Virus record (IMG/VR): IMGVR_UViG_3300029571_000006
From: a virus
Lineage: Duplodnaviria; Heunggongvirae; Uroviricota; Caudoviricetes
Length of the DNA stretch: 19,848 nucleotides
Direction: 5' to 3' (one strand)
Shown here: piece after piece, positions 1-19,430 of the stretch
How positions within the stretch are numbered: the stretch's first letter is position 1
Layout: each line of letters starts with the position of its first letter
Program-made: the position numbers and the translations under genes
The notes under the pieces: generated by a model
Told to the model about the DNA's origin: nothing
The model's database searches: none
Seen by the model: only the letters and a program-made list of their open reading frames with translations

Positions 1-204
1 CAGATAATCCAGTGCTGATCTGCCACCGGTTCTCTGACTCCACCACATCCATTTCCCATTTGATATTTTCAAACTATCGTGTGTTCTGGTAGTGTAGGTG
101 TTGCCAGAAAAGTGAACTAATTCGTATGGTTCATAATTTTTCAAGTACGTAAGCAAATCCATCCGCTTGACCTCCCGCACGACCGATGGTGGTATATATG
201 GCAT
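1..204 (-). CDS. 5' part of DUF3991/toprim (primase-like) ICE backbone protein, runs off the left edge
   Basis: Manual translation MPYIPPSVVREVKRMDLLTYLKNYEPYELVHFSGNTYTTRTHDSLKISNGKWMWWSQRTGGRSALDYL. The 'HDSLKIS..KW.WWS...GG..ALDYL' pattern is typical of these Clostridial ICE proteins. RBS AAAGGAG at 214-220; alternative ATG at 213. Confidence 0.75.
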   Translation of the reverse strand, partial: MPYIPPSVVREVKRMDLLTYLKNYEPYELVHFSGNTYTTRTHDSLKISNGKWMWWSQRTGGRSALDYL

Positions 205-262
205 AATTTTCATCTCCTTTCTTGCCTTAGATTGATATTATTGGGGATAATATCCGGGCATG

Positions 263-304
263 AAAATAGCCAGGTGATTCCTTGAGTTGGAACCATCTGG
301 CTAT
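263..304 (-). terminator. Intrinsic terminator-like hairpin after the SecB-like gene
   Basis: Minus strand ATAGCCAGATGGTTCC-loop-GGAATCACCTGGCTAT-TTT: a 16-bp stem with 2 imperfect pairs, followed by a short U tract. Confidence 0.6.
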
Positions 305-314
305 GTAAAAAACA

Positions 315-698
315 TTATTCGCTTTCTGTTTCTTCTTCAAATGGAGGTAAATCCACAACTGGTATCCCATACGCTTCAGTTACTTTTTTAACCGTCTTTC
401 TAAGTTCCGACAATGCAACCGGAAAGCATTTGAGTCGCACCTCTTCCTCGCTAATTTCATCACTATCTTTTTCGACTTCAAATCTAGATATCGTTTCTAA
501 AGTCAAATATAAACGTTCATCTGATTTTCCTAAATTCAACTTTAATTGAACAATCAAATATTTTGTTTTTCTCAAATCTTTTGGAATTAAAATTCCACCT
601 TCAACACTAACTTCTATATCTTTTTTCTTTTCTTTTTCCTTATTTTCAATAAAAGAAGCTGACTTCACATTATGTTGCACCAATTTAAAACTATTCAT
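315..698 (-). CDS. SecB-like chaperone (putative)
   Basis: 127 aa with alternating beta-strand patterns and a C-terminal helix 'FPVALSELRKTVKKVTEAYGIPVVDLPPF', matching the SecB-like P..R..I...T...G.P...LP signature. RBS GAGGTGG. Confidence 0.7.
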   Translation of the reverse strand: MNSFKLVQHNVKSASFIENKEKEKKKDIEVSVEGGILIPKDLRKTKYLIVQLKLNLGKSDERLYLTLETISRFEVEKDSDEISEEEVRLKCFPVALSELRKTVKKVTEAYGIPVVDLPPFEEETESE

Positions 699-710
699 TA
701 TTCCACCTCT

Positions 711-1286
711 CTATGCCAAGTTTACTTTTTGATTATGAATTGTTCCTATTGGATAACGAAATACATCTTTTGTATCCAAATCTATTTCTGAATCTTTTTC
801 CACCCTCAAGACACTCACAGCTTTATATCTTAAAATTAAAAATTTACTAATTTGTGGTTGAATAACATACTCAATATTTTTGTTTCTTTTTTGGAATTCA
901 ACAATTTCTTCTTCATATTCTCCTTCTTCTGCATCCATATACTCACCTACGGTTGGCAATACCTCATCAGGAATCTCACTAGATTTTTTTAATTCATATT
1001 CAACTTCTTTTCCATCATATTCAATCATAATTTTGTTATTTGTTACATTTAAAAACGCATCTCTGATAGTAATTTTATTTTCCAACAAATCAATTAAATT
1101 ATCATACGTTGTTCTTGTTCCAATCCATTTAATCTTTTCAGAATTTACCAAACAACAAATAAACAAGTATATATCTTTATCATTTTTGCATGTAAATAAC
1201 ACTGGATACTTACTTTCAAAAAGAATTGTATCTAAAATAACTTTTTGAAAATCCGGTATTTTTCTAAATATCTTTTCTATTTTCAT
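711..1286 (-). CDS. DUF6575-like protein, putative antitoxin with C-terminal extension
   Basis: 'ILFESKYPVLFTCKN...YLFIC....KWI...T....LIDLLENKITIRDAF...IPDEVLP..GEY' recalls DUF6575. Start reassigned to ATG 1286 (MKIEKIF), overlapping the upstream stop by 23 bp; the track start at 1346 overlaps much more deeply. Confidence 0.6.
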   Translation of the reverse strand: MKIEKIFRKIPDFQKVILDTILFESKYPVLFTCKNDKDIYLFICCLVNSEKIKWIGTRTTYDNLIDLLENKITIRDAFLNVTNNKIMIEYDGKEVEYELKKSSEIPDEVLPTVGEYMDAEEGEYEEEIVEFQKRNKNIEYVIQPQISKFLILRYKAVSVLRVEKDSEIDLDTKDVFRYPIGTIHNQKVNLA

Positions 1287-1716
1287 TTTCAAACACCTCA
1301 AATTCTCTATACGGCTCTGCATCTGTATATAACCACCAATCCACATGAGACCCTTTATATTTTATACCTAAATTTCGTTTCCATTCTTTAGTTTCCAAGC
1401 ATATTCCATGAGCAGGTTTTGTAACACCTTTCGCTATCACAAATGGAACTCCATAACGGCTATCCATTGCCATAAATCTTTTTACATCTCTAAATTTAAT
1501 ATAAGTCGATAATGAATATTCTTGTGGATCATGTTCATCACCATCTTTACTTATTTTGTATCCATTTTCTTCGAAACTATTCATAAACGATTCTCTATCA
1601 ACTTTTCCTGTTGCGCAAGCTCTAAATACCTCTAGTTCCTGCTCTCTTGCCCATTCAGGAATTTCAAAATTTTTGAAATATGAGGGAAACTTTTTTTCTG
1701 CTTGTTTATTATTCAT
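1264..1716 (-). CDS. Hypothetical protein, putative ADP-ribosyltransferase-fold toxin
   Basis: 150 aa with RBS GAGG. Motif order 'VFRA'...'SLSTY'...'SHVDWW' resembles the ART-fold R / S-x-S / third-strand arrangement. The ORF is solid; the function is an inference. Confidence 0.5.
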   Translation of the reverse strand: MNNKQAEKKFPSYFKNFEIPEWAREQELEVFRACATGKVDRESFMNSFEENGYKISKDGDEHDPQEYSLSTYIKFRDVKRFMAMDSRYGVPFVIAKGVTKPAHGICLETKEWKRNLGIKYKGSHVDWWLYTDAEPYREFEVFENENRKDI

Positions 1717-1762
1717 TCAATTCCTCAATTCATTAAATATATATCCTATAAACCTCTTTTTT

Positions 1763-1771
1763 ATTGTATCA
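1763..1771 (-). promoter_or_regulatory. Extended -10 promoter candidate (TGaTACAAT) for the three-gene operon
   Basis: TGN-TACAAT about 47 nt upstream of ATG 1716; no good -35. Confidence 0.45.
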
Positions 1772-1886
1772 TATCATATTAAAATATCTTTTTCTAGCAT
1801 CTGACTCCAAAAGATATCTAGCCCTTTTTACCAATATAATCAAAGAATCTTTCTAACAGTATTTTATCCAATTATATTTTTAGATT

Positions 1887-3749
1887 TTAGGGAATTAACC
1901 CTTTTCTTCCTACTGTTGAATCACCTGAAAAATGCAAATAATTTATTTTTGTTTTTACAGTACTACTTGGTTCCTCATTATCGAATATTATAATTTGTCC
2001 ATTCTTTTGTTCTGCCAACATTTCATAAAATTTCTCTTTTGTTCCTTTTGTTATAGTTTCATCATCCCCATCTTTTTTATCCTTCTCTTTGTATGTTGTT
2101 AATGGCGAATCCAAAACAACAATGCCTGGATGACACAAATTCCTTTTATAGCAATAATTCATTATTCCTATTAAAAATGTTGAATTAATTATTGCTCTAG
2201 CTCCTTTTCCATAAGAAGCTTTTTCTTTTTCTCCAACTTCTACATCCTCTGTAGCATTATTGTATTTTATTTTCCCCTCTTTGCCAATAAAATCACACCC
2301 TTGTAATAAAAATTTAATTTCCTTACAAAGTTCATTTGTATATGCCTCAGGTAAGTCTTCTATTTTCTTTCTTTTCTCTTGTCCTGTACTGTCTATTTTT
2401 TCTTGCCATTTACTAATTTCTGTATTATATTTGTTTATTCTTTTTTCATTTCTTGTTATTAAATTTATTCTTTCTTGTGCATCCATCAATTCTTGAACCT
2501 TTTTCACTTTCTCTGCTACTATCGGTCCTAAGTTATTATTTAGGTTATCTGTAATTTCTTCTTTATAATTTTCCAATTTACTAATACGCTGTTTTTTGCT
2601 TATTATTTCATCAGATAAATCTTTTATTGTCTCATCTAATTCTGCTAATTGAACTTCAATTTTTATCTTTTCTGTTGCTAATGCCTCATAATAATCATCT
2701 GATTTTTCCATCTCATTAACCTTCATAGGTGAATGACATATTGGACATTCTACCTCTACCAATTGTTGCGTCAAATCAAATGCATCATAAATAAACTCTA
2801 ATCGCTCAAGATCAGACAAATAATTTTTCTTCAACAAAACAAATTTGTTATTATTATTTAATAAATGCTTTAGTTCTGTATTTTTTATTTCAATCTCTGT
2901 TTGAATTTCTTTATAATCTAATTCATACTTCTTAATTTCTTCACTTTTTTCCTTTATAAATTTATTTAATTCAATAATCTCTATACTTTTCTCTGTATTT
3001 ATATCTTCCGTATCTTTTATCAACTCATTGTTTTCTATACGAATTTCATCAATAATTTGGCTTAATTGTTCTATCTTACCTTTTAATTTTGCCTTTATAA
3101 TTTCAGTATTTTCTTTTTTCTCTTCTTTTTTATAATCAATTCCCGATATAACTGTTTTAAAAGCCGTTCTTGCAGGTGTTGCAAAAGTACTTCCCCTAGA
3201 ATCTGTATGATAAATCGGAGAATGTCTTGCCGTAATTCTTAATTCATTAATCATAATTAATGGACTGAAGGATCTAAATGTAAAGGCTCGCGTATCTCCT
3301 TTTGTATTCTTCATCACATATTTGTATGTACAATCACAACAATTCAATAATTTTTTAGACAAGCTTTTTTTTGCATTATGAGTTACAGATAATTTTTCTA
3401 CCTCCGCTGCATCTTTCTCCTGATAATTGCTATAATAAATAAATATTTCGTTTTTTTCATCTTCAGAAAAATTTCGTTTTAATGTAAATATTTCTTCCTG
3501 CCCAATATCTTCAATTTCAAGGAAAACACTCCGATAGCCTTTCATTTCTGGAACTGTTTTAGGATTGGAAGATGAACCCAATGCAAAATCAATACATTCA
3601 AAAGCAAACGATTTTCCTGTATCAGATGCTCCCGCAATAACATTTAATCCACCTTTGAAATTAATAATTGCATCTTTTTTATTTTCCCCGGCCAAAATTA
3701 ATTTTGTCAACTTCAACCTTCCCTGCATTCTACTTTTCATTTTTTTCAA
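1887..3749 (-). CDS. SMC/Rad50-like ABC ATPase of a Lamassu/ABC-three-component system (LmuB-like)
   Basis: Walker A GASDTGKS, long coiled coils with a central CPIC zinc hook, signature-like SYGKG, Walker B VVLDSP; last gene of three overlapping genes. Confidence 0.85.
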   Translation of the reverse strand: MKKMKSRMQGRLKLTKLILAGENKKDAIINFKGGLNVIAGASDTGKSFAFECIDFALGSSSNPKTVPEMKGYRSVFLEIEDIGQEEIFTLKRNFSEDEKNEIFIYYSNYQEKDAAEVEKLSVTHNAKKSLSKKLLNCCDCTYKYVMKNTKGDTRAFTFRSFSPLIMINELRITARHSPIYHTDSRGSTFATPARTAFKTVISGIDYKKEEKKENTEIIKAKLKGKIEQLSQIIDEIRIENNELIKDTEDINTEKSIEIIELNKFIKEKSEEIKKYELDYKEIQTEIEIKNTELKHLLNNNNKFVLLKKNYLSDLERLEFIYDAFDLTQQLVEVECPICHSPMKVNEMEKSDDYYEALATEKIKIEVQLAELDETIKDLSDEIISKKQRISKLENYKEEITDNLNNNLGPIVAEKVKKVQELMDAQERINLITRNEKRINKYNTEISKWQEKIDSTGQEKRKKIEDLPEAYTNELCKEIKFLLQGCDFIGKEGKIKYNNATEDVEVGEKEKASYGKGARAIINSTFLIGIMNYCYKRNLCHPGIVVLDSPLTTYKEKDKKDGDDETITKGTKEKFYEMLAEQKNGQIIIFDNEEPSSTVKTKINYLHFSGDSTVGRKGLIP

Positions 3750-4197
3750 ATTCCCCTATCCATTTTCCTATGTTTTTATTTACATAATTTCTGATTTTAT
3801 CTTCATTCATTTTTGAAAATATTTTGTCTACCTCTGTTACGTAATACTGGTACTTTTTCGTATATTCATTGTTAAACATATCTACTATTTTATTTCCCAG
3901 ATTTGTATTTTGATACTTTATCCCTTGAGAATTATATTGCGGCTCAATCAATCCCTTACCGATTAAAAAATTTATTGCATTTTCAATAGTATGTCTTTTA
4001 ATAATAATTTCTGCCGAATGATTAGGATTAGACGGATGCAAACTCTCCCCTGTCTTTTTTAAATCACTAAAATGTAATGAAAAATAATCATAATATCCAA
4101 TTCTTTCTATCGAGTAAGTTTCTTTCACAATTTGTAAAATCAATAATATTCTGCAACCAATTTCTTGATTAGTATTATATATTTTCATCAATATCAC
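3730..4197 (-). CDS. ABC-three-component middle component (LmuC-like, wHTH-type)
   Basis: 155 aa (start may be 4188) with 'YYDYF....SD.....SLHP..P....EI..KR..I..AI.FL..KGLI'; overlaps both neighbours. Confidence 0.75.
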   Translation of the reverse strand: MILMKIYNTNQEIGCRILLILQIVKETYSIERIGYYDYFSLHFSDLKKTGESLHPSNPNHSAEIIIKRHTIENAINFLIGKGLIEPQYNSQGIKYQNTNLGNKIVDMFNNEYTKKYQYYVTEVDKIFSKMNEDKIRNYVNKNIGKWIGEFEKNEK

Positions 4198-5266
4198 TCC
4201 AAATTATTTTTTCATCATTGACAAGTTCGTGACACATGCCCGTTTTATCGTAAATAGTAACATCTTTTATTTCTTCGCAACTAATACCTAAAGAATTTGC
4301 TTGCTTAGTTGTTTCTTTTACTCTCTCTAATTCGCTTGAATATTCATTTTCATAAACATCCATTATTCCAAATTCAACCTGACCTTTTAAAGAGTTATAG
4401 CTATCTTCATTAAGTAATTCATCTCTTGCAAATCTTTTTAATGATTGTGCTGAAAAAAATCCTTCTCTCTGTCTCATAAAATGTTTATACAATTTTTGAT
4501 TATTTTTTAAGTCCTCTTGCGTTTCGTATACTTGTCCTGCTTCTTTTGAATACACTTTTAATAACTGTTTTACATATGGCATAGTTTTTTCTGACTTTTT
4601 CAATTGTTCAGAAGGCTTTTCAAATGTTGGTCTTTTTTTTATTCCACCACCAAAATGGTATTTATACCATGGTGATTTACTGAACTCATCAAGCAGTGTA
4701 ATTGGTGCTATATCTGAAACTATAGAAAAATCGAATTCCTCTATATATTTTCTTAAACTGTCTGTCATTTTTATGCCTTCAGCTATAATCTGTCTTTTTT
4801 TTCCACATTTTTCATCCCATATATTTATTAATTCAGTATTAATTTGTTTTGGATGCTCTATTAATTTTCTTAATGACTGACCAATTCCATTACTTGCTAC
4901 AATATAATATTTGTTGGGAACTGCATATTCTCCTATATATGTATAATAGCAAAGTTTTCCAAATTCAATCATATATGTCGATGGTGATAATGGTTTTTCA
5001 TATCGCTTACATTGATATATATCAAACTTTTGCATGTTATCATCTATATATGCCACCAGATCTCTTCCTGAGTCACCTGATCCTCCTAATAATGCAACAT
5101 TACTATACTTTTTTTCTTTTCTCAAACATGAATATGCCCATTCTCCAACAACTCTTTCAAATTCATCTTCTCCCATAGTTTTTAGTCTTAACTGTGGTTC
5201 TGTTGTATCAAATATCCTCGATGTATTCTTTGGTCTTTCAGGAGAGGATAACGGCTGTGTTTTCAT
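4175..5266 (-). CDS. Lamassu/ABC-3C effector: Mrr-like PD-(D/E)xK nuclease plus C-terminal ABC-3C domain (LmuA-like)
   Basis: 'FERVV...GDSGRDLVAY...IYQCKRY' is an Mrr-type E..D..D..QxK motif. C-terminal 'GMCHELVND.KI.W' is typical of ABC-3C C-terminal domains. Start at 5266 follows RBS GAAAGGG (track start 5296). Confidence 0.8.
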   Translation of the reverse strand: MKTQPLSSPERPKNTSRIFDTTEPQLRLKTMGEDEFERVVGEWAYSCLRKEKKYSNVALLGGSGDSGRDLVAYIDDNMQKFDIYQCKRYEKPLSPSTYMIEFGKLCYYTYIGEYAVPNKYYIVASNGIGQSLRKLIEHPKQINTELINIWDEKCGKKRQIIAEGIKMTDSLRKYIEEFDFSIVSDIAPITLLDEFSKSPWYKYHFGGGIKKRPTFEKPSEQLKKSEKTMPYVKQLLKVYSKEAGQVYETQEDLKNNQKLYKHFMRQREGFFSAQSLKRFARDELLNEDSYNSLKGQVEFGIMDVYENEYSSELERVKETTKQANSLGISCEEIKDVTIYDKTGMCHELVNDEKIIWSDIDENI

Positions 5267-5317
5267 AATATAACCCTTTCGCTCTAGCACAATCATACAA
5301 TACTTATTCTAAGTTAT

Positions 5318-5326
5318 ATTTTACCA
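5318..5326 (-). promoter_or_regulatory. Extended -10 promoter candidate (TGgTAAAAT) for the Mrr-Lamassu operon
   Basis: TGN-TAAAAT directly downstream of the radC terminator and upstream of the effector gene. Confidence 0.45.
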
Positions 5327-5347
5327 CCATACTATATAATTCTCCAT

Positions 5348-5393
5348 AAAAATATCTACCATCACCGAACCTGTTATCGATAATAGTAGATAT
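5348..5393 (-). terminator. Intrinsic terminator after radC
   Basis: ATATCTACTATTATCGA-8 nt loop-TCGGTGATGGTAGATAT-TTTT: a 17-bp stem whose three imperfect positions are all G:U on the minus strand. Confidence 0.7.
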
Positions 5394-5403
5394 CTTGTTT
5401 ATT

Positions 5404-5883
5404 CTATAATTCTCTCTCCCAATCCATCCTTCCTGTCACATTCAACAGCTTTTCTTCTCGGAAGCTGAGCATCTTTCCATTAGTTCCACCGACAATGATA
5501 TGATCCAGCAATTCTATCCCCAATAGCTGTCCGCACTTCTGCAGCTTTCTCGTAACAATCATATCCTCTTTTGATGGTTTCACATTACCACTGGGATGAT
5601 TATGAAGTCCAATGATTGCAGAAGCATTTGCCAGAATACTGCTCTTAAAAACTTCTCTGGGAATTACCAAAGATGCATTGATTGTTCCAACACTGACCAG
5701 ATTCATATTGATTACCTGTCCATTATTTTTCATATTCAAGATGCAAAATACCTCTCTGTCATATTGAGATAACTCCTTCGCCATCAATTCTACAACAGCC
5801 TGTGGACTGTCCAATATCTGCTCACTATAAAGAGATGGTTCTTTTACCAAACGGATATTCACAACTTCCAATTCATTCTCCAT
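5404..5883 (-). CDS. radC: RadC-family JAB/MPN domain protein (JAB domain only)
   Basis: 'DREVF...VSVGTINASLVIPREVFK...HNHPSG..KPS.ED...T......G.LLGIELLDHIIVG' is the canonical RadC JAB motif. Confidence 0.92.
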   Translation of the reverse strand: MENELEVVNIRLVKEPSLYSEQILDSPQAVVELMAKELSQYDREVFCILNMKNNGQVINMNLVSVGTINASLVIPREVFKSSILANASAIIGLHNHPSGNVKPSKEDMIVTRKLQKCGQLLGIELLDHIIVGGTNGKMLSFREEKLLNVTGRMDWEREL

Positions 5884-5998
5884 TGTTCTGATCTCCTTTT
5901 GGAAATTCTACAACTAGAAGAACATTACTTTCTGAAGATTCCACATATGCTTTCAATTGTGATAATGTCATTTCCAAATATTTAGGTTGTTCCACCAT
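5873..5998 (-). CDS. Small 41-aa hypothetical protein (not in the ORF track)
   Basis: MVEQPKYLEMTLSQLKAYVESSESNVLLVVEFPKGDQNNGE*. It has RBS AAGGAG and overlaps both the upstream stop and the radC start, suggesting translational coupling. Confidence 0.55.
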   Translation of the reverse strand: MVEQPKYLEMTLSQLKAYVESSESNVLLVVEFPKGDQNNGE

Positions 5999-6230
5999 AA
6001 TCTGCTCCTTTCGTTTCTTCCCTTGCTTCTGTTTTCTCTGACAAATAGCTTATCACTTTGTTTGCCTTAATGCTTTTCTGTAACTCACTGATAATGCACA
6101 GGTCTGCTACATTTACTCCTGGCAAAGCAAGCATTTCATCCATCGTCATATTGACAATCTCTTTCTCCGTTCCGTATCCGGCATCAAATAAACGCTGTAA
6201 TACTTTTATTGCTTTCTGATTCTTTCCCAT
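5982..6230 (-). CDS. Small helix-hairpin-helix-like hypothetical protein
   Basis: 'LQRLFDAGYGTEKEIVNMTMDEMLALPGVNVAD' resembles the HhH pattern (s.eEL..ipGig.k). Start uncertain (6230 preferred over 6296). Confidence 0.6.
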   Translation of the reverse strand: MGKNQKAIKVLQRLFDAGYGTEKEIVNMTMDEMLALPGVNVADLCIISELQKSIKANKVISYLSEKTEAREETKGADYGGTT

Positions 6231-6267
6231 TTCAATATCAAAGGGCAGCTTATCGCCGCCCTCTGTT

Positions 6268-9200
6268 TTACTCCTTCTCTTCTTTCTTTTCTTCAATTCC
6301 TAATCTCTTAACCTGCTTCTTTTTATTCCAGATACGAACTCCCGTGATTCCGGCTGCCGATAATAACAGAATGGCTATCCATAAAACTGCATTCGCAGTA
6401 TCGCCCGTTTTTGGAGGATTACTTGTCTTTGTAATAGTACCCGGTGTCTCTGGAGTTGATGTTTCCGGTACTTCTTTGATAGTTACGGTCTGACCTTCAT
6501 TGTCAATATCCTTATGCTCTGTTACCTTTTTCGGTTCTTCCGGATTTGTCATATCATACAGTTCTTCAAAGGTTACAAGCTGCTTTCCTCCAAGCGTGCT
6601 GCCGTTGAAAGTAAACTCAATCTGCACTTCCATGTTTTCCTTGTCCGCTGTAAATTCATAATCATTGGTAACCTCTTTGCCATCAATGAGCAACTTGGCA
6701 TTTTCTGCCTTAACCATCTGCCAACCGGACAACTTATAGTTCGTACCAATTTCCAATCCCTCTAAAGTAACCGTATCCACAATCGTCAGATCTTTTCCGG
6801 CTTCCACCTCTTTCTTACCGTTCTTATCCGTTGCTGTGGTATGAATCGAAATCTTTCGCTCCGTAATCAGGACGGTCTGACCTTCATCGTCAATGTCCTT
6901 ATGCTCTGCAACTTTTACAGGTTCTTCCGGATTCTTCAGATCGTATAATTCTTCAAATGTAACCAGATTCTGTCCGCCAAGTTCTGATGCATCAAACATA
7001 TAAGAAATTTCTACCTTCATTTTTTCATTGTCAGCAACAAAGGTATAATCACTCTCCACACACTTTCCATCAATGAGCAGTTCTGCATTTTCCTCTTTCA
7101 GCATCTGCCAGCCTTTTAACTGATATTTTCTTCCTTCTTCCAGACCGTCCAGAGTAACCGTATCTACAATCGTTACTTTCTTTCCTGCAACAATTATTTT
7201 TTCGCCCGTTTCTTTATCCGTTGCTGTTGTATGAATAGTAATCTCTTTTTCATACTCATCGGTCAGTGTTCCAAGGTCGATGGTTACTTTATTTCTGCTG
7301 ACAACAACTTCAAATGCTGGAATCAATTTCATACCGTTGTTGGATTCACAAGCTAACTCCTCAATCTCATAAGTGTCATAAAGTAATGCACCTTTGCTGT
7401 CGTCCGGCTCAGAAGTTCCGAACCAGATTCCGTCCTCACTGGATTTCCCGGCATTTGTATTTCTCTTATGTGATGCCCAATTGGAAGCTGTTGAAAACTG
7501 ACCATTTTTATCTGTCACTACGATATGGCTCTCTCCGGTTGTTTTACTGGTAATCTTAAAGGGAACATTTGCAAGTCTCTTATGTGTACCTGCTTCAATC
7601 TTTACGCTTTCCAAATCTCCACGTTTAATCTGGTTGTAAATGGAATGACTTTCATCTGTTAAATCCACGATTTTTTCCATTTTCCGTAATCGAAAATTCA
7701 ATCGCATTTGCCCCATCAGTCAGATAACCTTCCGGTGCTTTGGTTTCTTCCAGTTTGTATTTACCATACGGAAGTAAATCGGCCATCGTTGTTGCAATTC
7801 CGCCAATCCCCGTCTGAATCATCTTAACTGTCTCGTTCTTTTTGTACAGCTTTCCTTCTACCAGAACCAGATTTTCGTTCAAAGAAATAATCGCAAATGC
7901 TGTATCTTTTAATGTGGCACTTCCCTGTGCTTTGGTATCTTTTGTCTCTAAATCACGTTTCTGAATCTTCACCCCACCTCGGATTACCTGATCAGATACG
8001 GAATACTGATTGCTTCCGGAAAGAACTGCAAGTTCTCCGTCCTCTGTGATCTGTGTCAGATACATTTCTTTGATCTGCTCTGTACTGTCCCCTGCCTGCA
8101 TATAAGCTCCGTCTAGTAAGTATCCGTCTGGTGCTTTTGTCTCCTCAACAGTCAGTGTTCCAAGTGGTAATACGCTTTTTTCATTCTGGGTGTAAAATGC
8201 ATCCCCGGATACTTTGTAAGCATCTGCCAGTTTTGTCACATAATGAACAGTTCCATTATTGTCTTTTTCAACTACCGTCTTTGTAACCCAGGTACGTGTT
8301 GCTTTCTCTGGTAAATTGTCTTTTGTATAAAGTCCGTCATAATAATGCCAGGTAAACTCTGCTCCTGCCAGTGCTGCATCCCCCTGTGCGGTTGCTTTTC
8401 CCGTCTCCATATCAATCTTGAACAGGTCTACCAATGTCTCTGTCACTTTCGGAACATCGGAAACATTTAATACGACTGTCTTTCCTGCTTCAACTTTCAG
8501 ACTGTGTACTGTCGTATCCAGCTTATATCCCTTCGGTCCAGAAAATTCTTTGATATAAACAGTCCCTGCAGTCACTTCAACTTCATTTGTCTCACCATTC
8601 TCATTTGTTGTAAGTGTTCCAATCTGATTACTGCAATTCTGGTCTGAGAATATGCCAAAGGTTGCTCCGGCAATGGAATACATTGCATTTGCTTTTGTGA
8701 TACTTTCATTTGCTGTGATCTTTTTTACCTTCGCATTTCCGACATTCAGTTCTGCCCAAAACTGTCCGAGATCCTGTCCCTCTCCAGTATAGATATATCC
8801 GCCACATTTATAACGACCTTTGTTTGCCTGTACAAATGCTCTCGCCCCTGTATACACTTCATTCTGAATATCCTGTGAAATCTCAGAATATGCAGCTCGG
8901 ACATTATCACACTGCCAGCCTAAATACTCACTCAGTCTCTGCCATACTACACACTGTTCCAACAGATATCCCTGATTCGCATTCAGGTTGCTGTGACTGC
9001 CCCTATACTGCTTTACATACTCCAACGACAATGCCACATCTTCAATCTGTGCAGCACTCATACTGGAACTCGCATCGTGTCTGATTTTATACCCATTTTT
9101 AAATCCGGTGTTAATATCTACACAATAGGCTGTTTCGCCCTCCACTTTCATGTGACCTTCATTGAATGTCGAATGAATGGTTCCATCATTCATCACATGT

Positions 9201-9337
9201 TCAATATATCCGACTCGCTCTGAGGACTCTGTCCAATACTGTGTTTCTGCTGCGTAAGCCGATGTAGTCGGTAATGCAGTTAAAATCGTGGTCAGGGTAA
9301 GAAGTCCTGTACACACTCGTTTCCATATCTTCTTCAT
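6268..9337 (-). pseudogene. Sortase-anchored adhesin (signal peptide, thioester domain, SpaA/CnaB domains, two VaFE-type repeats), split by a +1 frameshift at 7671-7676
   Basis: ORF 7652..9337 has a signal peptide, TAYCVD...EQCVVW and 'ETKAPxGY' E-box domains. ORF 6268..7716 continues with Cna/VaFE repeats and PPKTG + TM + basic tail. Removing one A from GGAAAAAATC fuses ...ITENGK-IVDLTDE... into one ORF of about 1020 aa. Confidence 0.85.
6480..7256 (-). repeat. Two tandem intragenic repeats of about 387-390 bp (VaFE-type domains); boundaries approximate
   Basis: ACGGTCTGACCTTCAT..TCAAT.TCCTTATGCTCTG occurs at ~6485 and ~6872. The protein repeat is IHTTATDK...LVTFEELYD..NPEEP.KV.EHKDID.EGQTV. 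Confidence 0.85.
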
Positions 9338-9602
9338 TTTCTACAATTCCTTTCTTTTCAATCAAAAAAGACGTCCATCTGGAACGCCTGTTGTTGCTTT
9401 ATGCTGTTTACTCCCTGCTGTCATGCAGGGTATGGGAATCTCTGACCTGCCGAAAGAGAAGAGGTTCCCGGCTCCTTATTGTCTTTTCGGCTGGTAATCT
9501 GCTGGTAAACCAAAGGGGTAGGGTGTGGGGAGGGGAAAACAGAAAAAGGCTGATTTCTCATTGACCACCAACGGGTAGACTTTTCCCTTGGTGTCAAAAT
9601 GC

Positions 9603-10538
9603 CTATCGTTCCCTGCTTTTTTCCCGTTTCCGGTATAATTCCAGTGCTTTGATAATGGTTTCTTCCATTTTCTGCTGTGTAGTTCCCGATGGAAAGTATT
9701 TTTTCAGTCGGTTCTTCGGGATTTTCCACTGCTCTACCTGATTTGGCTTCTCTTCTGACATAATCGACAGCAAAACATCTTCATTCAACCTGCCCTCTGC
9801 TGAAAATTTGCGGATTTTAATTGCCTGTGCATGACTTGGGGTACAAGCCTCCGACTCCATGGTGTCGTACAATATCTCCTGTTCCTCTTTCGGCAAATAA
9901 GACAGCTCCACCGCCGGACGCATGGCAATTTTCTTGTTATCGACCATATCAAGAATTTCCGGTATTAAGTAGGTTAATCGAATATATCTTCTGATTTGGT
10001 CTTTACTTTCTCCAACCTCCTCACCCAATAATTCATCAGAACGTTTCCCTTTCAACTTTGTCGCCAGTGGCGACGAAGTTAAATCAGTTCTTTGTCCCTG
10101 TCTTTTCATGACATCTAACTTCATTTTGTAAGCAAATGCTTTTTCTGATGGTAATATTTCTTCCCTTTGAAGATTGCTGTCAACCATGACAATAACTGCT
10201 TCGTCATCACTGAGATTTCTTACAATACAAGGTATATTTTCTAACCCTGCCAGTTCACTTGCCATTTTTCTACGGTGTCCAGAAATCATTTCATACCCAC
10301 CTGTTGGCTTCTCTCTGACAAGAGCAGGAACCAATACACCATGTTCTCGAATACTTTCAATGGTCTCCACCATTTTATCATCCATTTTTACTTTAAATGG
10401 ATGATTCGGAAAATCACTGATTTCATAAACAGAAATATTTTTTACATGCTCCTGATTCTTCTGGTCTCTTTCTTCCTGCGTGGTAAAAAGGTCATCGGCT
10501 GAGGGAAGATTCATGTTTATTTCTTTGCTTTTCGCCAC
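9603..10538 (-). CDS. parB: ParB/Spo0J-family partition protein
   Basis: 'SIREHGVLVPALVR....GYEMISGHRR' arginine patch, 'DSNLQRE.ILPSEKA' and an HTH region; follows parA. Confidence 0.93.
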   Translation of the reverse strand: MAKSKEINMNLPSADDLFTTQEERDQKNQEHVKNISVYEISDFPNHPFKVKMDDKMVETIESIREHGVLVPALVREKPTGGYEMISGHRRKMASELAGLENIPCIVRNLSDDEAVIVMVDSNLQREEILPSEKAFAYKMKLDVMKRQGQRTDLTSSPLATKLKGKRSDELLGEEVGESKDQIRRYIRLTYLIPEILDMVDNKKIAMRPAVELSYLPKEEQEILYDTMESEACTPSHAQAIKIRKFSAEGRLNEDVLLSIMSEEKPNQVEQWKIPKNRLKKYFPSGTTQQKMEETIIKALELYRKREKSRER

Positions 10539-11319
10539 ACTGAATCACCTCCCTCGTAAATTCTACATACGCCTTTGCAACAGTTCCATTCTTGTCGTAC
10601 TCATAAATGCTCTGTCCTGCTGCACTGCTTTCTGCCGCTGTGATAGCCACTGGAATAACCGTTTTAAAAATTCGGATATGTTTTCCGTAATTTTCTCGAA
10701 GGCTATCCTCTGTTGTCCTTGCAAGTTTTGTCCTCATATCTGCAAGTGTTAGCAATACTCCATCAATCTTCAGATTAGGATTTAGCTGTCTTTGTACCTT
10801 ACCGATTGTTTTCATCAACTGCGTCATGCCCTTTAACGGAAGATAATGAGCCTGAACTGGAACAATTACACTGTCTGCGGCAGCTAACGCATTGATGGTC
10901 AACATACCAAGGCTAGGCATACAGTCAATCAGAATATAATCATAATCTTTTTTCAAATCTGACAGATACAGCTTTAGTGTCTGCTCTCTGCTCATGGCAT
11001 TTACTAATGACATTTCCATGCCTGATAACTCGATGTTGGTCGGAATAATGTCTACTCCTTCTTCATGGTGCAAAATGCCTTCATTATACACAAACGGTTC
11101 GTCTTGTAATATTTTCTTCATTTGCGTATCCAACGTAATCGGAAGATTATCTGCATCAGTCCACCCTAAAGCGGTTGTTAAGTCTCCCTGTGGATCAGCA
11201 TCGACCAATAATACTTTTCGCCCCTGATGTGCAAGACCAATTCCCAGATTTAATGTCGTTGTGGTCTTTGCTGTTCCTCCTTTCTGATTTGCAAGGGCAA
11301 TTACTTTGCACTTGGTCAT
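10492..11319 (-). CDS. parA: ParA/Soj-family ATPase
   Basis: Deviant Walker A NQKGGTAKTTT, VDADPQG, IDCMPSLG. Start 11319 follows GGAGG (track start 11355). Confidence 0.95.
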   Translation of the reverse strand: MTKCKVIALANQKGGTAKTTTTLNLGIGLAHQGRKVLLVDADPQGDLTTALGWTDADNLPITLDTQMKKILQDEPFVYNEGILHHEEGVDIIPTNIELSGMEMSLVNAMSREQTLKLYLSDLKKDYDYILIDCMPSLGMLTINALAAADSVIVPVQAHYLPLKGMTQLMKTIGKVQRQLNPNLKIDGVLLTLADMRTKLARTTEDSLRENYGKHIRIFKTVIPVAITAAESSAAGQSIYEYDKNGTVAKAYVEFTREVIQCGEKQRNKHESSLSR

Positions 11320-11347
11320 ATGATTTCCTCCTTCCTCGAAAAATTTA

Positions 11348-11436
11348 ATAGCCAATCCTTTTTACGGGACTGGCTATGTATAAAAATGAGCATGAAAAAA
11401 GCCGATTGATTCCTGATTGAACCAATCAGTTATGTA
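11348..11436 (-). repeat. Two tandem hairpins related to the hairpin at 258-307
   Basis: Plus strand ATAGCCAATCC...GGACTGGCTATGTA (11348-11380) and GCATGAAAAAAGCCGATTGATTCC...GAACCAATCAGTTATGTA (11390-11436). Confidence 0.6.
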
Positions 11437-11482
11437 TTTACTCTATGCATATGGAACGAACCATTTAAGCGCTTACTAAAAA

Positions 11483-11528
11483 ATAGGGAGTATACACACA
11501 ATCAATTGGTAGTGATAAACTCCCTATG
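11483..11528. other. Inverted repeat in the parA leader
   Basis: ATAGGGAGT...ACTCCCTAT arms with further imperfect pairing inside. Confidence 0.5.
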
Positions 11529-11634
11529 TATGGATTGATTTCTTCCTACATATTGAAAATAATTATTGCAAGTATAAACTTTGTCAAACAAAACTTAAGC
11601 TGTCTGCGTAAAGCAAACAGTTTGCTTAGGTTTC

Positions 11635-13563
11635 CTATTTCTCGCAATTCTCCTGTAATAAATAATTTTCGCCTTCCAACTTGTAAAAAACATTTTTTTT
11701 GAACTCTTCCGGATATGTGTCTATTCCAGTTGTTAATATTATTTGATATTGGGTTTTCATTTCTTCCGTATATTTATCAGCCTCTGCCAATAAACCAATA
11801 TTTTTAATTAAATTTTCTTTGTCAATTCCCTCCTTATTGGGTGTATCAATCATTAAAAATTGGGGGAAATTAGCTTCATTTTTTAAACTTTCAATCAACA
11901 TTGTCAAAAAGTACATTAACCTTTTAGGAACAGCTGCACTTCTTTCACGATATGCTCCCAAATTTATATGAGGCATATAATCCTCTCCTATATACGCAGA
12001 ATAACAGTGTTCATCAGCACGTTTCATTAGACTAAAATAAACTTCGTCAAAATCCTTCTTCTTATTCAACATATCTTCTCTTGCAGCATTAAGGAAAGAA
12101 TCTACCCTTATTTTTAAGCCTTCTACCTTATTTCTTAGCTGAATCACTTGAGAAGCAAGTGTTTCTCTTTTTTTGGCCAAATCTTTTGCCTGTTTTAACT
12201 CCAATATTATTCCATTTAATTCTCGTTCTCGCTCGTCAAGTTGACGAATATATGCTGAATTATAATTTGTTGCAATATCCTTCGTCAATTCATCAATATA
12301 AAGCCTTATTTTTTCAATAGATTGTTCTGCTTTTTCAATATGACCAATTATTATTTTCAATCGTTGACTTTTTCTTTCTAACAACTGTTCAAGTGACTGA
12401 ATAGACTTTTTCTTTACTTTCAAAATGTCTAAGTATTCTTCATCCGTATAGAAAAATTTTTCATACTGTTCTTCTTCAATGTCGTTTCCACATATACATT
12501 TCCCTTTTTCACGTTCTACTTCTCTTAAACAGTAAGGGCACGTATTCGGAGTAAACAATTTCAACTTTTTATTAACAAGCCTAATTTTTTCAATTTCACT
12601 CAGTTCTTTTTCTGATTCATCAATCAAATACAAAATTTTATCAATAGATTGTGTTGTTAAATTTTTTGCAGATTCCCACTCTTCCAACTTATGTTGGTTT
12701 AATATTAACTCTTTTTTTTGTTGACCTATTAGTTGCCAAATTTCATCTGAATTACCTTGTTCTCTTGAAGCAATTTCTCGTTCGATTTGAACTTTCTCTA
12801 TCATTTCCTGATTTTCTGATATCATTGAATTAATATGAACAACATTCGCCAAATCATAGTCTAAAACTTCTCCAAGGAATTCATCATAACTATCCATAAC
12901 TGCTTGTGCTTTCTCAAGCTCTTTCATTGTTAATTTATACTGTCCCAATGTTGAATAATAATCATTGTACGTCTTCCCAAGCAAAATCTCGAATATTGCT
13001 TTCCTAATCTCAAGTGAATCTGACAAAAAATTAGAATTATCCGCTTCTTTATAAACTTTATCAACCTCCGTTTCTTGATCATGATAAACCAATCTCAATA
13101 AATCAGTAAAATTAAGTTTAAAGCTTCTTGTCCCTTGTACAATATCAAAAACGTTTATATTTAATTTTCCTAATATCCAATCAGAAAAAACCATAGTATG
13201 TTCATCACTTTGATTTCTTAATACACAAGTCTCCCTGACTTCCTCATCTTCTCCAACTACAAATATTAAGTTGTCTCCTATATAGCGTGTTAGCTCATAT
13301 TTTTCATCATCAATTTCAATTAGTAATTCTACGTAATTATTTGTATCATAAAATATCTCATTATGTTTTTTTGAATCATTATCATCATTTTTATTAAATG
13401 CTTGTACTCTTCCTCCCAATCCATAATAAATCAAATTCATGAACGTGCTTTTTCCATGCCCATTTACGCCTTCCATTATTACGATTCCATCATTCAAATA
13501 AGGAGATTCGAAACTATATTTATCTCCACTATACACAACTCTTCTAATAGCTAATCTTCCCAT
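11635..13563 (-). CDS. SMC/Rad50-like ABC ATPase of a second Lamassu/ABC-3C-like system
   Basis: Walker A GVNGHGKS, Q-loop-like YHDQ, coiled coils with a CPYC-x10-CIC apex, Walker B LMIDTP, IILTT. Confidence 0.85.
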   Translation of the reverse strand: MGRLAIRRVVYSGDKYSFESPYLNDGIVIMEGVNGHGKSTFMNLIYYGLGGRVQAFNKNDDNDSKKHNEIFYDTNNYVELLIEIDDEKYELTRYIGDNLIFVVGEDEEVRETCVLRNQSDEHTMVFSDWILGKLNINVFDIVQGTRSFKLNFTDLLRLVYHDQETEVDKVYKEADNSNFLSDSLEIRKAIFEILLGKTYNDYYSTLGQYKLTMKELEKAQAVMDSYDEFLGEVLDYDLANVVHINSMISENQEMIEKVQIEREIASREQGNSDEIWQLIGQQKKELILNQHKLEEWESAKNLTTQSIDKILYLIDESEKELSEIEKIRLVNKKLKLFTPNTCPYCLREVEREKGKCICGNDIEEEQYEKFFYTDEEYLDILKVKKKSIQSLEQLLERKSQRLKIIIGHIEKAEQSIEKIRLYIDELTKDIATNYNSAYIRQLDERERELNGIILELKQAKDLAKKRETLASQVIQLRNKVEGLKIRVDSFLNAAREDMLNKKKDFDEVYFSLMKRADEHCYSAYIGEDYMPHINLGAYRERSAAVPKRLMYFLTMLIESLKNEANFPQFLMIDTPNKEGIDKENLIKNIGLLAEADKYTEEMKTQYQIILTTGIDTYPEEFKKNVFYKLEGENYLLQENCEK

Positions 13564-14069
13564 TTTGACACCTCATCATATCCGAACACCTTTTTTTGCA
13601 ATGTTTCCAATTTCAAACTTCTTATTCTGGGAATTAGTTTTCTTACAGTAAAACATCTATTTAAATCCTCATCCAATATTTTCATTTCTATCAGATTGTT
13701 AAATGCTTCGCTCTCTTTTAAAGTGACATTAATATTACTATTTTTAATACTTCTGGTCAGCTCAACCATATTTTGTTTTTCTAAAAAAAAGAGAACTCTC
13801 TTTATTACAGAAACATTTAATCTTGAATCGCAAAAAAACTTAATCGCTTTATCACTATCAAAAATATTTAGTTGACTATGATGTATTAATTTCTGTAGAA
13901 ATATGATATTCTCTTCACTTTTTATAGCTTCTAATACTATTCCTAATTTTCTATAGTCTTCAAATGGTTTTTTGTCACAATCCAGAGCCTTTAAAATTGA
14001 AAGGAGTTTTATTGTAATAAAGTAATAATCTTCTTCAAGAATGAACATCATTCTTTTTTTACTATCCAT
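13551..14069 (-). CDS. Putative middle component (LmuC-like) of the second system
   Basis: 172 aa, overlaps both neighbours, wHTH-like 'IKRVLFFLEKQNMVEL'. Assigned mainly by position and size. Confidence 0.6.
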   Translation of the reverse strand: MDSKKRMMFILEEDYYFITIKLLSILKALDCDKKPFEDYRKLGIVLEAIKSEENIIFLQKLIHHSQLNIFDSDKAIKFFCDSRLNVSVIKRVLFFLEKQNMVELTRSIKNSNINVTLKESEAFNNLIEMKILDEDLNRCFTVRKLIPRIRSLKLETLQKKVFGYDEVSKWED

Positions 14070-15327
14070 TTACGTTTCCCCCTTCATCTAATGCCAAATA
14101 GCACTCTTGAAACAATATAATTATTGTTTTTCTTATCATATCTTGATCTTCAAAAGCTACATCGTATGTTTTAGCTTTATCTTGGATAAACCCATATGCT
14201 CCATGTGTTAGCTCTTCAATAAACACTTCTATTTCATCTTGTGTAAAAGCACTGTTTCGCTCCTTCAAGAATTTCTTTATTTTCTTCTGGCACGCTTTAT
14301 ATACTCTGTAATTATAAGCCTTTACCTGTCTATGATTTTGATGATGGCTTTGCTCATATGCACCATCAATATATTCCTCTTCCAGTTCTTCCAAAGAATC
14401 TTTTTCAAAATCTGGACATACGCACAAAAACTTTTCATTTATATTTCTTACATCATCACATTGTATATCATCCCATTTTTCGTACATTGGATCTAATTTC
14501 TCTTGTATTTTAGCCTCTTGTGCAAATTCTAAAAATAAAGATTTGATCTCCGCGACATGTACAATACGACATAAAAAATCATCTTCAAACTTTCTGGATT
14601 CTATCATATCTAGCATTTGTGCGACGATTGCAGGTATATATTTTTCATTCACATTATATTTAAGACATATCTCTCCCACTAATCTTTCGACATTTTTCCT
14701 AATTTCAATCTCATCAGCCTTTCCAAAATTCCATTCTATCAAATCAAAAAATTTTTTCCATTTTTCTTTATCCATAGAATCTAATATTTTTTCAAAAAGT
14801 TCTATATCTTCTTCTTTGTTGATATGCTTTTTATGTTGTTCTAAATAATATGCCCTAAAAACAGGCAGAACAAAAGGAAACGCTTCATCATATTTCTTTT
14901 CACACAACAACTGAATTAACGGTTCTTCTGGCAACGTCTCTTTTATTTTTTTTAATTCGCCAACTTTCTTTTCTTTTTTTATATTTGTATTTGTATAAAA
15001 AACAAATTTGATACTCTCAGACACTTCAACTGTACCATACCAAGTATCAAAGAAGATTCTTAAAGAATTCTTTACTTCATGACTGTTCATTGAAAAATCT
15101 GTTGAATACGATTTATTTTGTTCTGCCGTATAATTAGTGGTTTCATGCTCTACATCAACCTCTAAGACATCATCAATATGTTCAATAGTACAAAACACAG
15201 CCCTCTTATTCTCTAAAAGGGCCCCTAACAATCTCTCAGCAGCACGTATCTTTTGCAAACCAATGCCTTTGATACTTGAATCTGCATCTGTATTAATCTG
15301 TTCTGTCTGAAGTACTTCCTTAATCAT
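14062..15327 (-). CDS. Putative effector with N-terminal Cap4/DUF4297-like nuclease (LmuA-like)
   Basis: 'ADSSIKGIGLQ' (cf. A...GF.YQ), 'EHIDDV' and 'EQNKSY' form an E..DD...Q.K nuclease motif; RBS AAGGTGA. Confidence 0.7.
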   Translation of the reverse strand: MIKEVLQTEQINTDADSSIKGIGLQKIRAAERLLGALLENKRAVFCTIEHIDDVLEVDVEHETTNYTAEQNKSYSTDFSMNSHEVKNSLRIFFDTWYGTVEVSESIKFVFYTNTNIKKEKKVGELKKIKETLPEEPLIQLLCEKKYDEAFPFVLPVFRAYYLEQHKKHINKEEDIELFEKILDSMDKEKWKKFFDLIEWNFGKADEIEIRKNVERLVGEICLKYNVNEKYIPAIVAQMLDMIESRKFEDDFLCRIVHVAEIKSLFLEFAQEAKIQEKLDPMYEKWDDIQCDDVRNINEKFLCVCPDFEKDSLEELEEEYIDGAYEQSHHQNHRQVKAYNYRVYKACQKKIKKFLKERNSAFTQDEIEVFIEELTHGAYGFIQDKAKTYDVAFEDQDMIRKTIIILFQECYLALDEGGNVNG

Positions 15328-15421
15328 CTTCTCACCTTTATATGTACATACTTTTACTGTTCCATTATGCTATTCTTAGCATATCATAAATCATAAACAA
15401 AATGAATACATCATAACATCA

Positions 15422-15430
15422 ATTATATCA
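15422..15430 (-). promoter_or_regulatory. Extended -10 promoter candidate (TGaTATAAT) for the Cap4-like Lamassu operon
   Basis: Perfect TGN-TATAAT about 95 nt upstream of ATG 15327. Confidence 0.5.
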
Positions 15431-15725
15431 ACAGAATACATATTATTTTTAAGTATCCCTCACAAATCTAATCATTATCTTGCATATATACCCTTACACG
15501 AATTTAGGTCACAAATCCGATTCGCATTATTCCGTCCAAACCGTGTTTTATATCCAAATTATATGGAAATATGGATCAAATGAACGTTTCAGCACTGAAA
15601 ATAACTTGAAATCAGATTAAGAGACAGGTATTCTATAATATGCCTCACCATCTAACTTTTCTCTATTATAATCTCAATTTCTCTTTTCATCAATCGGAAA
15701 ATACTTCCACGACAACTTACGAAAG

Positions 15726-15955
15726 GTTGGGGAATCTTACGCTATCATACATCAAAAGTTGGGAAAATATTGGGGAGTTACACTACTCCCCAACAAAATA
15801 AAACAGGCAATCTTCGCCTACTTATTTCAGAAGAATGAGGCGAAGTTTCACACGCCAGTTGGGGAGTTGAAATTCCCCAACTCACTCCCCAACTTTTACC
15901 CAATTCCATGCATAAATAGCGATAATTTACGATAAGTCAAAATTTATTCCCCAAC
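15726..15955. repeat. Array of eight (A[C/T])TCCCCAAC-like boxes in both orientations
   Basis: Reverse copies at 15726, 15758 (GTTGGGAAA, degenerate), 15770 and 15858; forward copies at 15785, 15872, 15884 and 15946; central IR CTTCGCCT/AGGCGAAG at 15812-15845. Confidence 0.85.
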
Positions 15956-15959
15956 ACTA

Positions 15960-15982
15960 AAAAAGGTCCACCGGACCTTTTT
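15960..15982. repeat. Perfect palindrome AAAAAGGTCC-ACC-GGACCTTTTT
   Basis: 10-bp perfect arms with a 3-nt loop. Confidence 0.75.
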
Positions 15983-16001
15983 GTCGCATGCTTGGCAACG
16001 C

Positions 16002-16048
16002 AAAAAAACCTTGAATCATCCCATTTTCATAGGAAATTCAAGGTTTTT
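16002..16048 (-). terminator. Bidirectional-type intrinsic terminator
   Basis: AAAAACCTTGAAT...ATTCAAGGTTTTT perfect 13-bp arms with extra pairing inside and a U7 tract on the minus strand. Confidence 0.7.
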
Positions 16049-16083
16049 CGTTGATTTACATGATAATAATACGGTTCAAATTC

Positions 16084-16292
16084 TTATGCGAACTGTAAGA
16101 TTATGCGTTCATCTGTTTTGCAACTTTTGGATTACATTCCAGCCTGCTTTGCGAAGTATTTTTATAAGTCCTTATTTATCAGTATGTTACAGCATTATGA
16201 TTTAAGAACTTACGCAACTTTTACGCAACTATTTTTTGCCTTGCTCAAATGAAGATGCGTCAATTTCAACGCAATTTGCATTTTACGCAACT
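16084..16292. repeat. TTACGCAACT repeats, probable integrase arm-type sites of the phage att region
   Basis: Exact TTACGCAACT at 16210, 16221 and 16283; degenerate TTATGCGAAC 16084, TTATGCGTTC 16101, TTTTGCAACT 16116, AACGCAATT ~16268. All lie immediately downstream of the integrase stop. Confidence 0.7.
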
Positions 16293-16294
16293 GG

Positions 16295-17497: not shown

Positions 17498-17577
17498 TAT
17501 TCCTTTCTATATTGACTACAGCATCAACTTACACATATACATTACAATATTTTACGCAAAAATACAACTGCTAAGTT

Positions 17578-17766
17578 TCAAATGGGTATATGGTATTTTG
17601 CGCATCGATTTAAGTATTCATCGAATAACTTCTTATTAACATATAACCGGTTGCCTAGTATAACAGTAAATGTGCTGTTAGGTCTTTTTAGTATTTCTCT
17701 TACCTTCGTTTCTCCCCATCCGGTGTATTCGCACACCTCTTTGAGGCTCATCAATATTTTCTCCAT
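17578..17766 (-). CDS. xis: Excisionase-like winged-helix DNA-binding protein
   Basis: 62 aa 'LMSLKEVCEYTGWGETKVREIL...GNRLYVNKKLFDEYL', upstream of int; RBS AAGGAG. Confidence 0.8.
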   Translation of the reverse strand: MEKILMSLKEVCEYTGWGETKVREILKRPNSTFTVILGNRLYVNKKLFDEYLNRCAKYHIPI

Positions 17767-17788
17767 TATGTATATCTCCTTATAAAGA

Positions 17789-17810
17789 GAGGCGGGCTTG
17801 CGCCCACCTC
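17789..17810 (-). terminator. GC-rich hairpin with GCAA tetraloop between dut and xis (terminator/attenuator candidate)
   Basis: GAGGTGGGC-GCAA-GCCCGCCTC followed by TCTTT, a weak U tract. Confidence 0.5.
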
Positions 17811-17818
17811 ATAATATT

Positions 17819-18265: not shown

Positions 18266-18279
18266 TGTAATGTTCCTTC

Positions 18280-19428: not shown

Positions 19429-19430
19429 TA

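Follow-up and report, generated by a model that had tools for sequence, protein, structure and literature searches.

The stretch of DNA analysed here, a window of 19,848 nt, carries three closely spaced genes on its minus strand, with an overlap of 23 nt between gene 1 and gene 2 and a gap of 12 nt between gene 2 and gene 3. A sequence-only reading had described these as three coupled, AT-rich genes placed directly behind a Lamassu operon, and both descriptions hold: the GC content of the cassette is 28%, against about 40% in its flanks, and LmuA, LmuC and LmuB were recognised upstream at 5296-1887 (PADLOC E 1e-92, 2e-36 and 4e-140, respectively). The features of the cassette are the following:

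1763-1796, minus strand: likely promoter of its own, with a TAGAAA -35 element from 1796, TG-n-TATGAT at 1776-1768 and an overlapping TG-n-TACAAT at 1771-1763
1716-1264, minus strand: gene 1, a 150-aa ORF with a predicted ART-superfamily fold; likely the toxin and a distant PD-T4-10A relative
1286-711, minus strand: gene 2, 191 aa from an ATG behind a GAGGTG ribosome site
867-1286, minus strand: gene 2 residues 1-140, a folded DUF6575-like domain; likely the toxin-binding antitoxin core
711-866, minus strand: gene 2 residues 141-191, a chaperone-addiction-like tail ending in ...KVNLA; likely a SecB-binding site and protease degron
698-315, minus strand: gene 3, 127 aa, a divergent SecB-like chaperone; likely the phage sensor
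263-304, minus strand: terminator-like hairpin with T/A runs on its flanks

The mechanical ORF of gene 2 reaches 1346, and its start was placed at the ATG by the ribosome site. A promoter consensus scan returned 14 sites compared with 14.3 in shuffles, which by itself is not above chance. The better-supported element was TAGAAA-N17-TG.TATGAT, with its -10 at 1773-1768 (9/12 consensus plus TG), 5 bases upstream of the overlapping TGATACAAT that had been proposed, at 1763-1771, as the extended -10 of the cassette. One or the other of these overlapping forms was kept in 10 of 12 relatives inspected, with spacers otherwise diverged, and the other 2 had a different promoter. The proposal of an own extended -10 is thus borne out by the retention of the motif, but the scan is at chance and the neighbouring TATGAT is the better supported of the two. 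In two copies that are 96-97% identical (L073 and L081), TTGAAA-N17-TATAAT replaces the cassette's own promoter upstream of gene 1. The downstream hairpin, previously called a terminator, has a folding energy of -21.4 kcal/mol (z -3.4; 2 of 200 shuffles equally good), but a terminator scanner called 0 terminators, this hairpin included, and a recognisable version was kept in 3 of 12 relatives.

A DUF3991/TOPRIM gene lies directly downstream of the cassette, with RadC upstream, and the position of the former suggests that the cassette sits as cargo in an ICE-like element. The right end of the window presumably holds an integrase together with genes resembling dUTPase and nrdG, and we take its left part to include ParA/ParB-like and pilin-like genes. 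The window comes from a viral record; the nearest phage record matches only its positions 16062-19848, at 98%, and positions 1-16061 look like ICE cargo.

Further loci were found via gene 1, giving a set of 143 that was not dereplicated (49 from GTDB, 14 viral and, from metagenomes, the best 80 of 179). With 28 loci set aside as cut by contig ends, 115 could be assessed, and all three genes were intact and in order in 96 of these (37 GTDB, 11 viral and 48 metagenome cassettes, the last from the best 80 of 179). The expectation that the three genes co-occur elsewhere was therefore well founded. GTDB matches were all from Bacillota, mostly Lachnospiraceae and Oscillospiraceae, and covered dozens of gut-bacterial species. 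Four loci were decayed throughout, and at another, L057, the script's score of 'partial' was judged wrong. The gene 1 profile found 3 of 401 sampled Bacillota genomes, namely the seed and two fusion forms of the kind described below; the three-gene form is rare, since 0 of the 400 genomes besides the seed carried the unit. Median dN/dS (17 sequences and 136 pairs, of which 53-74 were usable, or 53-63 for gene 1, the gene 2 core and gene 3) was 0.10 for gene 1, 0.20 for the gene 2 core, 0.62 for the gene 2 tail and 0.22 for gene 3. Genes 1 and 3 and the core of gene 2 are under purifying selection, and gene 1 is the most conserved of the three. We regard a toxin-antitoxin-chaperone (TAC) architecture as very likely.

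Searches of Pfam, NCBIfam and PADLOC yielded no useful match to the window's gene 1, and a PDB sequence search with the gene 1 alignment returned nothing significant. The AlphaFold model has a pLDDT of 93 and six strands. Foldseek with this model found no match at E<=0.001, ART-superfamily chains being the top rows. A wide fold search was led by KptA (Z 6.7, rmsd 2.6, 88 aligned), TreX (6.4) and Scabin (6.4); nearly all of the 50 fold matches listed belonged to the ART superfamily, and no Z reached 8. The nearest named cluster in the Atlas was Arr, at 0.79, which is a lead only. Based on the model, gene 1 is predicted to have an ART-superfamily fold with a split beta-sheet, in line with the ART-like fold suggested earlier, although the scores are modest.

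The putative triad of gene 1 is strongly conserved across 117 family members, with R32 present in 114, S70 in 117 and H124 in 117. In the model these residues lie on beta1, on beta2 and at the front of beta5, respectively; ART triads sit on strands 1, 2 and the front of 5, where the R-S-E clade has a Glu (PMC7955679). This Glu is replaced by H124 in all 117 members, within an R...SLS...H-x-D-WW motif, confirming what had been noted as R...SLS...H-x-x-WW in place of R-S-E. Because a His replaces the catalytic Glu, ADP-ribose transferase activity of gene 1 is not assured; D126, present in 109 of the 117 members, could serve as an alternative acid. A similar arrangement is found in Tse2, a toxic ART-fold effector with a predicted pocket of R14, T79, S80 and H122 (bioRxiv 10.64898/2026.06.15.732508). 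Both proteins are ART-like in fold and place R, S and H in the three positions of the pocket, but Tse2 matched weakly in the gene 1 fold search (Z 3.8), the residues correspond by strand order and not by superposition, and Tse2 is a secreted P. aeruginosa T6SS effector with an unrelated immunity protein.

The gene 2 model separates a beta-rich domain (residues 1-140, pLDDT about 90) from a poorly structured tail (residues 141-191, about 44-54). The window's gene 2 protein had no PF20215 (DUF6575) match in a Pfam search. Of its 12 syntenic relatives, 1 scored above the gathering score and 4 at E<0.001, and 15 of 120 gene 2 homologues among the matches listed carried PF20215. The domain also lay near DUF6575 clusters in the Atlas, at 0.90-0.93, and HHalign of the gene 2 family with an annotated DUF6575 protein gave 95.8%; through these relatives and profiles, the DUF6575-like assignment is upheld. 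A PDB fold search with the domain gave no Foldseek match at E<=0.001 and a best Z of 5.3. Three viral models were matched by the domain, one named DUF6575 and two being 113-124 aa proteins; plasmid and GenBank phage records contained no gene 2 match. A stand-alone 134-aa DUF6575 gene occurs amid small genes on a plasmid (L070:2444-2848), and the Atlas holds further short DUF6575 clusters, one of them partly viral. Such stand-alone genes are possible orphan antitoxins. The idea of phage-borne antitoxin mimics was unsupported, as the stand-alone DUF6575 protein had no phage match.

The tail of gene 2 is 35% identical among relatives, compared with 66% for the core, and its dN/dS is the highest value given above; the variable, low-structure C-terminal extension of TAC antitoxins is therefore present in gene 2. 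In a census of dereplicated gene 2 relatives followed by an intact chaperone, which are not independent of each other, 52 of 75 ended in Ala and 32 of 75 in Ala-Ala, against 20 and 2, respectively, of 280 further long ORFs from those loci. CmdA carries LAA at its C-terminus and is broken down by ClpP (PMC11618068). ChAD regions of different TACs show no similarity to one another, and ChAD deletion makes a TAC antitoxin chaperone-independent (PMC5105189). Judged by its sequence, the 50-aa tail of gene 2 is likely a chaperone-addiction tail with an Ala degron.

The window's gene 3 had no direct match in Pfam, NCBIfam or PADLOC, and a PDB sequence search with its alignment found nothing significant. 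Among close gene 3 homologues, 5 of 56 matched Pfam SecB weakly. We chose 20 syntenic third genes across the range, of which 10 passed the SecB gathering score and 15 matched PD-T4-9_C (CmdC) models. HHalign aligned the window's gene 3 family with those 10 genes end to end (95.8%, E 6.6e-9), and a profile of the same 10 found E. coli SecB at 6e-11. By these profile comparisons gene 3 is a divergent SecB, as had been proposed, although it is its relatives and not the window's protein that give the direct matches. SecB is sporadic in Firmicutes, and 44 of 70 SecB copies outside Proteobacteria are TA-linked (PMC4257090).

The first two genes lead to PD-T4-10, a validated two-gene anti-T4 TA system of E. 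coli (Vassallo 2022, PMC9519451). Gene 2 matched the PADLOC model PD-T4-10_B at positions 22-134 of 353 (E 5.9e-6), as did 7 of 12 gene 2 relatives. PD-T4-10_A was matched by 14 of 117 gene 1 family members (best 2.2e-8), with no match from the window's gene 1 or its 47 closest homologues, and HHalign of the gene 1 family with a protein matching PD-T4-10_A gave 96.6%. On these profiles, which are PADLOC models and not the actual E. coli sequences, genes 1 and 2 are distant relatives of PD-T4-10A and PD-T4-10B. All PD-T4-10_B matches stayed within positions <=147 of 353, so the C-terminal region of B is absent from gene 2, a 191-aa protein that did not cover the full-length model. The two systems share gene order, overlapping ORFs and an A-family first gene, but PD-T4-10 has no SecB-like gene, and its B protein has about 220 further residues where gene 2 has the 50-aa tail. 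The published roles, A as antitoxin and B as toxin, are also the reverse of those that we assign: PD-T4-10B is toxic, and PD-T4-10A is non-toxic, cannot be deleted and rescues B (PMC9519451). Table S3 part 3 of the supplement assigns no fold to PD-T4-10A or B (PMC9519451).

The pair of genes 1 and 2 had been put forward as an undescribed toxin and antitoxin, with defence-model searches (DefenseFinder/PADLOC) named as the check on novelty. In the accessible literature we found no description of an ART/DUF6575/SecB system, but the pair itself is distantly related to PD-T4-10A/B, and the PADLOC link from gene 2 to PD-T4-10_B speaks against novelty at that level. A 2025 RefSeq-wide survey of SecB neighbourhoods reportedly describes several new TAC classes, with ART toxins from Gram-positive hosts tested. 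There is a real, though lesser, chance that it already lists this cassette family.

Two-gene forms, in which the second gene is a fusion of 390-430 aa with an N-terminal DUF6575 domain and no SecB is annotated beside it, were found at L064, L066-L069, L151-L153 and L159. Their hosts are a cyanobacterial plasmid, Arthrobacter, a staphylococcal prophage, Rahnella, E. coli prophages and two Bacillota genomes. They have the first-gene family and the DUF6575 domain in common with the cassette and match PD-T4-10 models, but their C-terminal region is PDC-M63B-like (matched in L066, L067 and L068) or of another kind. Of these 9 forms, 8 retain the R-S-H triad. A tree built from 40 chosen gene 1 proteins, which contains long branches, had one branch (96/94) that split the 9 fusion forms from 31 TAC-lineage rows, and the two SecB-less short forms nested within the TAC side. 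The staphylococcal pair, an ART and a DUF6575 fusion of roughly 400 aa, lies at the prophage end beside leukocidin genes. In enterobacterial prophages (L151, L152, L153 and L154-L165), an ART and a 430-aa DUF6575 fusion lie near late or lysis genes and form a candidate PD-T4-10-like defence system.

Among TAC systems, CmdTAC (PD-T4-9) resembles the cassette in its ART-fold first gene, its tailed second gene with an Ala degron and its SecB-like third gene, but CmdA consists of two helices plus a tail, and gene 2 has a 140-aa beta-rich domain. CmdT is diphtheria-toxin-like with an H-Y-[E/D/Q] triad (PMC11618068), and CmdA is known to be variable (PMC9519451). We considered membership of CmdTAC and rejected it, given that 0 of 117 gene 1 family members matched PD-T4-9 models and that their triad is R-S-H. 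A CmdA-like helical antitoxin was likewise rejected, gene 2 being beta-rich and neither the window's protein nor any of 12 relatives (0/12) matching PD-T4-9_B. With no gene 1 or gene 2 sequence examined matching PD-T4-9 A or B, the earlier view that this is not CmdTAC is sound. Its claim that a Gram-positive TAC would be new is not, because CmdTAC homologues already occur in Gram-positive species (PMC11618068). HigBAC, MqsRAC and HicABC share with the cassette the T-A-C order and a poorly conserved C-terminal extension of the antitoxin (PMC3581621, PMC5105189), but they have RNase toxins and DNA-binding antitoxins, and no such family was matched here. In every TAC that PMC3581621 surveys, the toxin gene precedes the antitoxin gene. 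As far as its genes can be placed, the cassette would work like CmdTAC, yet is neither CmdTAC nor a full PD-T4-10, and is likely a TAC variant built on a PD-T4-10 core.

We think it reasonably probable that the cassette is a TAC phage-defence switch, with gene 1 as an ART-fold toxin, gene 2 as a labile antitoxin and gene 3 as a SecB-like stabiliser; that gene 1 is an NAD-using toxin in phage defence we hold with moderate confidence. The genes form a single cassette in T-A-C order with a conserved promoter motif of their own. In the proposed switch, the DUF6575 domain of gene 2 would bind and block the ART, and SecB would bind the aromatic, low-structure tail of gene 2, hiding its C-terminal Ala degron. 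By analogy with HigBAC and CmdTAC, a new phage structural protein would outcompete the tail for SecB, and a ClpXP-type protease would then degrade the gene 2 product. Once free, the R-S-H enzyme may transfer ADP-ribose from NAD to a cellular target, of which RNA or a component of translation is the most likely, and so abort infection; the chief alternative to this chemistry is simple hydrolysis of NAD. From the tree we infer that the unit probably arose once, when a tail-plus-SecB sensor was grafted onto the two-gene ART/DUF6575 core used by PD-T4-10. A role in phage defence is proposed because PD-T4-10, CmdTAC and HigBAC defend (bioRxiv 10.1101/2024.02.24.581848 for the TAC part). Clear defence genes lay within two ORFs at about 10 of 42 GTDB loci (127 flanking ORFs; matches picked by hand, with no control); these neighbours were a retron RT, CBASS, AbiL, PD-lambda-1, a DRT-associated DUF1848, Kiwa, PDC-S04, type I restriction and Cas3. 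Two Lamassu operons in the window itself add to the defence context. About 32 of the 42 loci had no clear defence neighbour.

Natural lesions bear on which of the first two genes is the toxin; the loci counted were retrieved with gene 1 and include the best 80 of 179 from metagenomes, and breaks in MAGs may be assembly errors. At 7 loci gene 1 was broken, and both the core of gene 2 and gene 3 were scored as intact (L024, L039, L040, L042, L046, L102 and L113), of which L039 and L040 carry further lesions. The reverse case had a single candidate, L100, but gene 1 there is cut after residue 132. SecB was absent or 5'-deleted with gene 1 intact at 6 loci (L028, L034, L035, L044, L045 and L142; the script had scored L028 as intact, and it was reassigned on inspection of the locus). 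At all 6 of these the native end of the gene 2 tail was deleted, replaced or short, as would be expected if an antitoxin without its tail no longer needed the chaperone. The exception is L144, where gene 3 is frameshifted and gene 1 and the tail are intact; one extra base in a T run is responsible, perhaps a sequencing error. Deletions in L028, L034 and L044 span the gene 2 tail into the SecB gene, with an in-frame fusion in L044. L035:2573-3499 holds an intact ART and a 145-aa, tail-less DUF6575 protein with no SecB, a natural minimal TA pair.

The natural mutants point to gene 1 as the toxin, which we favour because of this lesion pattern, the degron tail on gene 2 and the absence of B's C-terminal region. 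The triad alone is no proof of toxicity, since the two-gene forms keep R-S-H too. That PD-T4-10A is harmless alone does not mean that it is inert, because CmdT alone is also non-toxic (PMC9519451, PMC11618068), but this does not account for the killing by B when A is missing. If polarity were reversed, the DUF6575 protein would be toxic, gene 1 would neutralise it by binding or ADP-ribosylation and SecB would help to fold or hold the toxin. The homology of genes 1 and 2 with the PD-T4-10_A/B models, the published toxicity of PD-T4-10B and neutralising role of PD-T4-10A (PMC9519451), and the conserved triad of the two-gene forms (8/9) all agree with such a reversal. We nevertheless judge it quite improbable, as the region of B beyond position 147 of 353 is absent in gene 2, gene 2 is intact at the 7 loci with a broken gene 1, and the 134-aa DUF6575 gene of L070 has no gene 1 relative annotated beside it; moreover, a degron on the toxin would turn defence off once SecB was diverted.

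With gene 1 as the toxin, a TAC of the same polarity might still act to maintain its element or to respond to proteotoxic stress instead of sensing phages. The cargo slot in the ICE-like element (DUF3991/TOPRIM downstream, RadC upstream) and the majority of GTDB loci without a clear defence neighbour would fit such a role, and the first TAC, from M. tuberculosis, is described as stress-responsive (PMC4257090). The nearest studied relatives of both modules, PD-T4-10 and CmdC, are anti-phage, however, the two-gene forms occupy accessory slots of prophages, and 14 loci are on viral contigs, leaving this role unlikely in our estimate, though not negligible. That the genes are accessory parts of Lamassu, or a chance cluster, is very improbable. 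The cassette is on the same strand as lmuB and 170 bp behind it, but of the 143 loci, which include the best 80 of 179 from metagenomes, only 5 have Lamassu genes. These 5 all share at least 98% gene 1 identity, and no Lamassu genes occur at loci with 95-97%; therefore, the upstream operon is an incidental neighbour. An accessory role is largely refuted by this rarity and by the promoter motif that the cassette keeps elsewhere.

On the reading of gene 1 as an ART-fold toxin held by gene 2, the cassette would represent a TAC class whose core has no relation to HigBA, MqsRA, HicAB or CmdTA, in gut Clostridia, where housekeeping SecB is mostly missing. PD-T4-10, an orphan system, would gain a mechanism, since its A protein would have a specified triad on a predicted ART fold, and the R-S-H ART may modify a new target. 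Lacking B's C-terminal region, the cassette would be the cleanest setting in which to tell which half is toxic. More tentatively, the R-S-H ART and DUF6575 may form a portable toxin switch with interchangeable sensors, namely the tail plus SecB here and various C-terminal fusions in PD-T4-10 and related forms. The A-family protein, which was published as an antitoxin with no function assigned, would then be an active enzyme that uses NAD, acts on a new target and belongs to an ART class not yet described, and the toxin and antitoxin roles of the pair would flip with the DUF6575 fusion; we consider this possible but doubtful. The natural tail-plus-SecB deletions would represent chaperone addiction lost in the wild.

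The window also contains a second, divergent Lamassu-like operon on the minus strand at 11635-15327, with an LmuA-like gene (E 3e-17), LmuB (9e-51) and a 172-aa middle gene with no useful family match. Two Lamassu systems thus lie in the window, less than 15 kb apart.
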